A program made the position numbers and the translations under genes. Positions 43,687 through 44,181 of a stretch of DNA of 64,000 nucleotides are shown here, one piece after another. Under the pieces are notes generated by a model. That model did no database searches and had not been told where the DNA came from. It was given only the letters and a program-made list of their open reading frames with translations. Location of the stretch: the NCBI GenBank assembly GCA_964016885.1, contig OZ024740.1:149544001-149608000 (forward strand). Reading direction: 5' to 3'. Every line of letters begins with the position of its first letter. The stretch's first letter is position 1. Source of the DNA: Eledone cirrhosa. Taxonomy: Eukaryota.

Positions 43687-44181
43687 AAATTTCGTTTTCA
43701 TTTTGTTTCAATTTATCGTTTTCGGTATGCCTGACCGATTTAACTCACTCAATATGCAAATTAGGCTGCTCAGCCGTTAATTTTCATAAGGAAAGTATAT
43801 ACTTTCGAACGTTCAACTATCTGGCAGATGGGTAAACGGTGCTGATGATAGCTAACAAGCTTGAAACTAGTACATCGTTCCTGTGTCAGTGTTGAACAAA
43901 AAGGTGACGTGGTTGCCTTGACACCGTATGGCATAAATTCAGGCTGTTCAGTTTGTTTACAAACGAACAAAGCGACGTTAGCGCCGCTAAACTGATACGT
44001 GCATATATGTATGTGTACCTGTATGCATATGTATGTATATATGTATATATATATATATATATGTGCATGCTACTATACGTCTGTATACATATATGTATGT
44101 ACGTATACATGCATACTTACATTTAAGTAAGTGCCATACTAAGAGTGAGAAATGAAATTTCGTTTTCATTTTGTTTCAATT
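43687..44181 (+). repeat. Full monomer of retrozyme-like subfamily B
   Basis: ATGCAAAT at 43754, TATATA, HHR ACGGTG-CTGATGA-T-AGCT aaca AGCT-T-GAAA-CTAG-TA-CATCGT (43836-43878); terminally redundant hairpin sequence; followed by about 190 bp (TA)n. Confidence 0.9.

Follow-up and report, generated by a model that had tools for sequence, protein, structure and literature searches.

Each unit of the hammerhead ribozyme (HHR) repeats in the window, by which we mean the whole 64,000-nt stretch of DNA that was analyzed, carries a block with the layout of the host's U3 promoters. Based on our findings, we favor, with modest confidence, a model in which this block starts transcription about 30 nt after its TATA box, probably by RNA polymerase II (Pol II), as part of a self-regenerating cycle. 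From its sequence, an snRNA-class promoter inside these retrozyme units is likely to be real and functional. Since the motifs that precede the ribozyme are the same, at the same spacing, as those of host U3 and U6 promoters, the repeats likely drive their own transcription rather than depending on read-through from their neighbors.

The units are type I HHR tandem repeats with the anatomy of retrozymes and of newt satellite 2 (Table 1). The conserved core and the helix II and helix I pairing are present in sequence and folds, and the units are short (here 430-690 nt), tandem, non-coding, dispersed and high in copy number, as in non-LTR retrozymes. An Rfam scan of the window gave no match at gathering thresholds; the HHR core pattern has 40,324 matches genome-wide versus 8 for a reversed control. 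One C unit, the third (core at 43577), is cut off before its promoter by the inversion junction.

Table 1. Repeat arrays, promoter elements and ribozymes in the window (positions are those of the window)
Feature	Position	Strand	Remarks
A array, ~430-nt period, 15 units	31148..37663	+	each unit has a 12-mer variant, YCAG, TATA and HHR
Second A array	38799..39777	+	T6 run ~49 nt before each octamer
Second A array, example unit	12-mer 39343-39354; TATA 39386; predicted start 39416; core 39432	+	
C array, 466-nt period	42387..43658	-	HHR cores start 43577, 43111, 42645
C monomers	43081-43546 and 42615-43080	-	
C, last unit, 12-mer	42735..42746	-	TATAAC starts 42702; predicted start 42672-42673
C, middle unit, 12-mer	43201..43212	-	
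Inverted copy of C HHR 5' strand, C/B junction	43659..43687	+	replaced first C unit's promoter
B, single permuted insertion	43686..44182 (start approximate)	+	ends ~37 nt before next octamer position; joined to (TA)n
B 12-mer TATGCAAATTAG	43753..43764	+	octamer 43754-43761; host proximal element of U6/U6atac/MRP/tRNA-Sec, near-variant in U3
B TCAG	43770..43773	+	26 nt before TATA; putative PSE core
B TATA box	43796..43801	+	42 nt after octamer A; palindrome center, RNA hairpin possible
B predicted transcription start	43826	+	CA step at TATA+30 (start on A); sequence-based prediction
B type I hammerhead	43826..43896	+	core CTGATGA 43842-43848, GAAA 43863-43866
B hammerhead cut, predicted	after GTA at 43872	+	minimal palindromic helix III

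Other elements lie around the repeats. A weak GIY-YIG match (28671-29567, plus strand, E 6e-4, under the cut-off), 1.6 kb upstream of the A array, is a possible Penelope-like remnant and is followed by a ~130-nt inverted repeat at ~30611-30740. Related segments of ~550 nt at ~30000-30560 and ~40150-40680, one on each side of the A arrays, may be a duplicated host element. The (TA)n after unit B adjoins a tRNA-type SINE-like sequence (44370-44520, plus strand) with A- and B-box-like motifs seen by eye. At the window's edges are a PIF1-like helicase fragment (341-1123, plus strand, E 2e-52), probably of a Helitron, and a 69-nt tandem repeat of 7 copies with open frames on both strands (63139-63625).

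A sequence-only reading of this DNA had placed an octamer and a TATA box at a fixed spacing just upstream of each ribozyme, and this description stands. The octamer is ATGCAAAT at 43754-43761 on the plus strand in B, ATTTGCAT at 42738-42745 and 43204-43211 on the minus strand in C, and ATGTAAAT in 14 of the 17 HHR-bearing A units, the other 3 having one-base variants. Its end lies 34 nt before TATATA in 18/18 A/B units and 33 nt before CATATA in both C units that retain the block, and in A and B the extended helix-I 5' strand starts ~20 nt after TATATA; the octamer-to-core distance is 88 nt in A/B units (93 in one) and 100 nt in both intact C units. We extend the description in two respects: the octamer is part of a 12-mer, TATGCAAAT(T/G)AG, and the C box is better taken as TATAAC, which starts 43 nt after the octamer A. 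The A/B layout then has the 12-mer 42 nt and TCAG 26 nt before TATA, and the C layout has the 12-mer at 43 and CCAC at 27. Most sampled A-type copies genome-wide have ATGCAAAT, the T variant being a mark of this window's array. In dinucleotide shuffles of the monomer, a 12-mer (≤1 mismatch) followed by TATA arose in 0/3000 cases for A and 1/3000 for C. The block and its spacing are thus common to A/B and C, as had been claimed, but because A, B and C share ancestry, this is agreement among kin families and not three independent events. A reading of the TCAC just upstream of the octamer as a vertebrate-style PSE was dropped, this TCAC being absent from families D and F and having no host counterpart.

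The block is also found when copies are selected by their HHR, the promoter not being a criterion. The 12-mer (≤1 mismatch) is present in 52/76 such A/B/C copies, and 47 have TATA at 42-43; YCAS occurs in 46 of these 47, CA at +29/+30 in 31, and AG in 10, a count equal to the number of 43-spaced C copies, that is, with the start shifted by one. For family F the 12-mer is found in 51/85, TATA in 38, YCAS in 29 and CA in 31. Placed at TATA+30, the predicted +1 is the A of a CA in A, B, F, G, H and I; C is off by one base, and D and E have a G there. While the TATA-to-core distance varies across families from 44 to 61, the TATA-to-start distance is constant.

To read the block, we found host small-RNA genes by Rfam models and aligned their upstream DNA (~120 nt upstream of L001-L003, L068, L074, L214, L215, L046-L060, L196-L207 and L291-L305). 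The host code that emerges appears unusual. In U6 (three promoter types), U6atac, MRP and two tRNA-Sec genes, TATG(C/G)(A/T)AAT(T/G)AG stands at -76 to -79 and TATA near -30, and these genes start on G and end in T5-T10. The 12-mer (≤1 mismatch) at -76..-79 is present in 7/7 kept Pol III-type promoters and 0/26 Pol II-type promoters in a tally set before U3 loci L301 and L302; the latter figure does not extend to every U3 gene, as these two loci carry the 12-mer within 1 mismatch. The Pol III tally left out 25 presumed pseudogene loci without upstream elements, namely U6 loci of the L007 type (6), L014, L015 and L220-L231 (12) and U6atac loci L069-L073 (5). This exclusion is partly circular, though not for MRP (a single hit), the two tRNA-Sec genes or the best U6atac hit, whose selection did not depend on it. 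U3 loci L303 and L304 were excluded likewise, and U4atac (L306) fitted poorly and was left unscored. In the tandem U6 cluster (L007-L013), six of the U6 copies fetched have other sequence in place of the DNA upstream of TATA and no 12-mer.

The Pol II snRNA promoters follow a different scheme. U1, U2, U4, U5 and U12 are without the 12-mer and have YCA(G/A) at -55 to -59, a TATA-like box and a downstream AAAATYAGAC box, and AATTA stands at -88 to -91 in most U1/U2/U4/U5/U11/U12 promoters and near -100 in U3. YCAR at -59..-55 is present in 21/26 Pol II-type promoters versus 0/7 Pol III-type. YCAG was considered as a Pol II-specific signal and is ruled out by RNase P and a 7SK-like gene; since both have TCAG plus TATA and yet end in T8-T9, TCAG is to be regarded as a shared core. 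YCA(G/A/T), found at the same place as B's TCAG in host U1/U2/U4/U5/U12/U3, RNase P and 7SK-like promoters, is likely the PSE core, to judge from its position. The 7SK-like gene (L299:1501-1779, plus strand) is a single weak Rfam 7SK match of 45 bits with TCAG, TATA and a T8 end, and is likely the host 7SK gene. U3 would be a hybrid of these schemes: its octamer-like ATGTAAA stands at -71 to -74, its TCA occupies -54 to -57, and a TATA box lies near -31; its octamer-to-TATA distance is 42 in 7/9 loci and 40 in 2. The octamer is therefore, given the U6-class and U3 promoter positions, a proximal element in this host and not a distal enhancer, which amends the earlier reading. As a putative protein-binding site, it fits the extended POU-binding consensus.

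Aligned to these host promoters, the repeat block matches in both sequence and spacing, as the earlier reading had anticipated. With host U3 and U6-class promoters it shares, in register, the 12-mer or a near-variant, the TCA core, TATA and the start spacing; it differs from U3/U1/U2 in being without the upstream AATTA, and from the U6-class genes in having a TCAG core. Both AATTA and the AAAATYAGAC 3' box were looked for in the repeats and are absent. The layout of the A/B/C block is that of host U3 as read from sequence: the octamer-like element lies near -72, TCA near -56 and TATA near -30, and the start is an A. U6-type spacing, in contrast, does not apply to it, since the host U6-class genes have 46-49, 4-6 nt longer than the 42-43 of A/B/C/F/G/H, and only D and E reach that range. 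One stretch, ATATGTAAATTAGGC, is common to U3 locus L301 and 14 A units of the window, a match of 15/15 consecutive nucleotides. Among 234 in-register comparisons, whose values are those of single tests, A is best matched by U3 (31/60 identities, 0/1000 shuffles) and D and E by U6 and tRNA-Sec (34/60 and 31/60). H versus U4 scores equally well (32/60), and some U2/U4/U5 promoters also score with G, H or I.

Which polymerase would use the block is a point on which we depart from the earlier reading, which had proposed a U6/H1-type Pol III promoter. The U3-type geometry, the A start, the T≥5 runs and the newt precedent point to Pol II. T≥5 runs (T5-T9) occur in 27/31 monomers, whereas in the host Pol III RNAs examined internal T≥4 runs are absent and the 3' end is at T5-T10. 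The position of the T5-T9 runs, ~40-50 nt ahead of the following promoter, makes Pol III the less probable enzyme. Among U3 loci with an intact promoter, 4/7 have ≤T3 right after the RNA end, while L291 has T7 and two have T4. U3 is taken here as Pol II-made by analogy with other animals, and in insects it is grouped with Pol II promoters (PMC11892584). Against a Pol II-only reading, YCAG is also present in the T-ending RNase P and 7SK-like genes. On sequence grounds the balance favors Pol II for A/B/C, as about twice as probable as Pol III.

If the promoter were the same but used by Pol III, each unit would be a type-3 gene whose transcription mostly ends at the T-run, ~45 nt ahead of the following promoter, and promoter-carrying monomers would come from read-through only. 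We regard this as unlikely, although it accounts for several observations: the exact 12-mer marks host U6, U6atac, MRP and tRNA-Sec (7/7), the Pol II-type AATTA and 3' box are absent from the repeats, the T-run is placed like a terminator, D and E have the U6-type spacing of 47-48 with G at +30, and schistosome HHR repeats are Pol III-transcribed (PMC6765202). It does not sit well with the spacing of A/B/C/F/G/H, which equals that of U3 and is 4-6 nt under that of host Pol III genes. Furthermore, most copies stem from templates that span the T-run and the promoter, the 3' ends of A/B copies lie ~8 nt beyond the T-run and not inside it, and a ~T6 run in D, ~17 nt after the cut site, would abort Pol III.

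The block is not confined to A, B and C. A search by promoter pattern only gave 617 hits with U6-type spacing (78 in the control) and 2,417 with 32-34 spacing (128 in the control), and most fetched loci have a hammerhead-like core downstream, which yielded families D-H. The block is thus present in at least five further HHR families, with U6-type spacing of 47-48 in D and E. Across the genome, the exact 12-mer occurs 37,404 times (control 623), and the 12-mer with a core 74-100 nt later has 28,104 matches (control 6), in which one site can count twice. As the families are related by descent, this is conservation within one superfamily rather than repeated invention. The 12-mer (≤1 mismatch) is present in 19/70 HHR-selected D copies, and YCAS is kept in only 4/11 scored D copies. 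Thirty further HHR loci contain it in 4 cases, all of family H (background 42/5000 windows), and it is found in 0/17 of those among the 30 that were assigned, by reading, to different minimal-HHR families. In the HHR-selected A/B/C, F and D copies, truncation and old decay account for many of those without it.

Among these families, D (L136-L165, L396-L435) combines U6-type spacing and a G start with the ~T6 run that should stop Pol III. In H hammerheads (L178, L182, L262, L274, L276) a U3-A8 core pair replaces C3-G8, which we take to be a tolerated covariant. Two other minimal hammerhead families (L263, L270, L271, L273, L278-L280, L288, L290; and L261, L264, L275, L277) are without the block and are possibly Penelope-type terminal repeats.

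In Drosophila, a 4-bp spacing rule decides polymerase choice. A tentative extension of our model is that one retrozyme superfamily took over the host code with two different geometries, the U3 type for Pol II and the U6 type for Pol III, and so switched polymerase by a spacing change of 4-5 bp. Its ~37,000 12-mer copies vastly exceed the real U3/U6-class genes found and, if this is true, could titrate throughout the genome the factors on which the production of spliceosomal and nucleolar RNAs depends.

We suggest a plausible cycle for the Pol II-read units. The polymerase would start ~30 nt after TATA, a few bases ahead of the hammerhead, and read through the unit's T-runs into the next unit. 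Two hammerheads would then cut to give a 430-500 nt monomer, the last ~120 nt of which would comprise the next promoter and the 5' half of the ribozyme, and this monomer could be circularized or kept multimeric. A reverse transcriptase acting in trans, probably Penelope-like, would prime at (TA)n targets, using two preferred sites that lie just upstream of the promoter. By copying across the cleavage junction it would again place the promoter ahead of the ribozyme in the new insertion. An insertion would need two ribozymes to give a new monomer. The Penelope-like enzyme is a probable mobilizer in view of the inversions and of a proposal in PMC7229834.

The idea that a monomer carries the next promoter came from the earlier reading and is consistent with the copies themselves. 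In the cut-to-cut monomer the promoter falls within the final ~120 nt, and the majority of genomic copies continue upstream across it: 58/76 A/B/C and 57/85 F copies reach 85 nt or more beyond the predicted start on its upstream side. Array ends are mostly fused to (TA)n, and copies cross both the cut site and the promoter. Among 73 aligned array ends (2 more are unaligned), 26 are found in the range -42..-30 relative to the next octamer and 30 in the range -112..-85, ~5 of these 30 being alignment run-on into TA repeats. These end-points are consistent, if indirectly, with a promoter-carrying circular or multimeric RNA template primed just upstream of the promoter. The T-run was considered as the direct source of copy 3' ends and rejected, the A/B ends lying ~8 nt beyond it. 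The two fixed insertion ends flank a conserved hairpin upstream of the promoter and are fused to (TA)n (window 42387, 44182 and 41445; L021-L045, L076-L105, L307-L335), and inverted pairs often use one end site on each arm.

Copy 5' ends give no support for the predicted start site. An early impression that they cluster at the predicted start was gone in 231 HHR-selected copies, in which 9 of 103 shortened copies end there versus 10.3 expected, with poor references for D. This lack of enrichment would agree with a reading in which a U3/U6 promoter was captured but has since become a fossil and the repeats owe their transcription to read-through from flanking DNA, and a review describes metazoan retrozymes as seemingly promoterless and dependent on read-through (PMC7761336). 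We nevertheless find a fossil improbable. It would be expected to drift between families, but in an alignment of 14 copies from 7 families (the F-I rows chosen for the 12-mer and TATA, not for CA) the invariant columns are concentrated in the 12-mer, the CA core and TATA, and the spacing of the elements is fixed while neighboring segments vary in length.

A further possibility, the least probable of those weighed and in our view very unlikely, is that the block is kept as an RNA signal, either circle-stabilizing hairpins or a reverse-transcriptase recognition site, and resembles a promoter incidentally: the 12-mer and TATA each lie within predicted hairpins in A/B/C/F (z = -2.4 for B), covariation with the pairing base (T-A versus G-U/G-C) is seen at one position of the 12-mer and copy 3' ends lie at fixed distances upstream of the block, but RNAalifold gave no common structure for 7 families, a fixed-register hairpin was no better than shuffles (71/500 and 61/500, a single register being poor for some families), the strand that pairs with the 12-mer changes, and in D lies upstream, whereas the 12-mer itself stays constant, YCAS and TATATA are often in loops, and the T/G variation of the 12-mer parallels that of host promoters. 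RNA covariation, which the earlier reading had named as an alternative cause of the conservation, is therefore not upheld, there being no cross-family fold and a hairpin at shuffle level; in the modeled folds, structure seems to have adapted to a fixed sequence.

If the promoter reading is right, it bears on the strong constitutive expression of metazoan retrozymes, for which the 2020 review assumes no promoter (PMC7761336). Direct comparison with host genes gives exact bases, a spacing and a predicted start site to mutate, and the families form a natural spacing-variant series for testing polymerase choice. The host snRNA promoter code would itself be useful for U6-driven expression tools. 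Our literature search, which ran without most subscription papers, found no description of this promoter block or of this host's snRNA promoter code.

Among the nearest known systems is newt satellite 2, the promoter of which reportedly consists of an octamer plus a PSE (Coats, Zhang & Epstein 1994), in a literature said to include Epstein & Gall 1987 and Cremisi 1992. Its short units are arranged in tandem and combine a minimal type I HHR with an internal promoter of the snRNA type, which is reported to be one for Pol II (PMC2220036, PMC6765202). Our repeats resemble it in working similarly, without a claim of membership, and differ in host, sequence, unit length (430-690 nt), the TATA box, the host U3/U6 proximal code and the two spacing classes. 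In the Schistosoma SM-alpha repeats the promoter is said to consist of tRNA-type internal boxes (Ferbeyre 1998). There a Pol III promoter precedes the HHR; cleavage leaves this promoter at the 3' end of the unit, so that a single copy leads no further and a tandem is required (PMC6765202). The promoter-then-HHR order and the tandem logic of these SINE-like repeats are shared here, whereas our repeats have an upstream snRNA-type block in place of that promoter. Metazoan non-LTR retrozymes (Cervera & de la Peña 2020) are type I HHR tandems of 170-400 nt with low GC, highly self-paired predicted circles, tens of thousands of copies and a proposed Penelope-like mobilization; endogenous promoters are not discussed in the accessible part of that paper (PMC7229834), and the 2020 review has metazoan retrozymes seemingly without promoters (PMC7761336). 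Our units are like them in HHR type, tandem layout, low GC and copy scale but are longer and have a host-matched promoter block. Plant LTR retrozymes are likewise HHR retroelements with their own promoter, located in the LTR, but they have type III HHRs and LTR/PBS/PPT anatomy, and an snRNA-type promoter is not stated in the part of the source consulted (PMC9695139). Our findings suggest that what was seen in newt is not an isolated curiosity but a strategy that recurs. The principle is known from newt and schistosome; what is new is the base-level match to host U3/U6 promoters, the two geometries and the scale.
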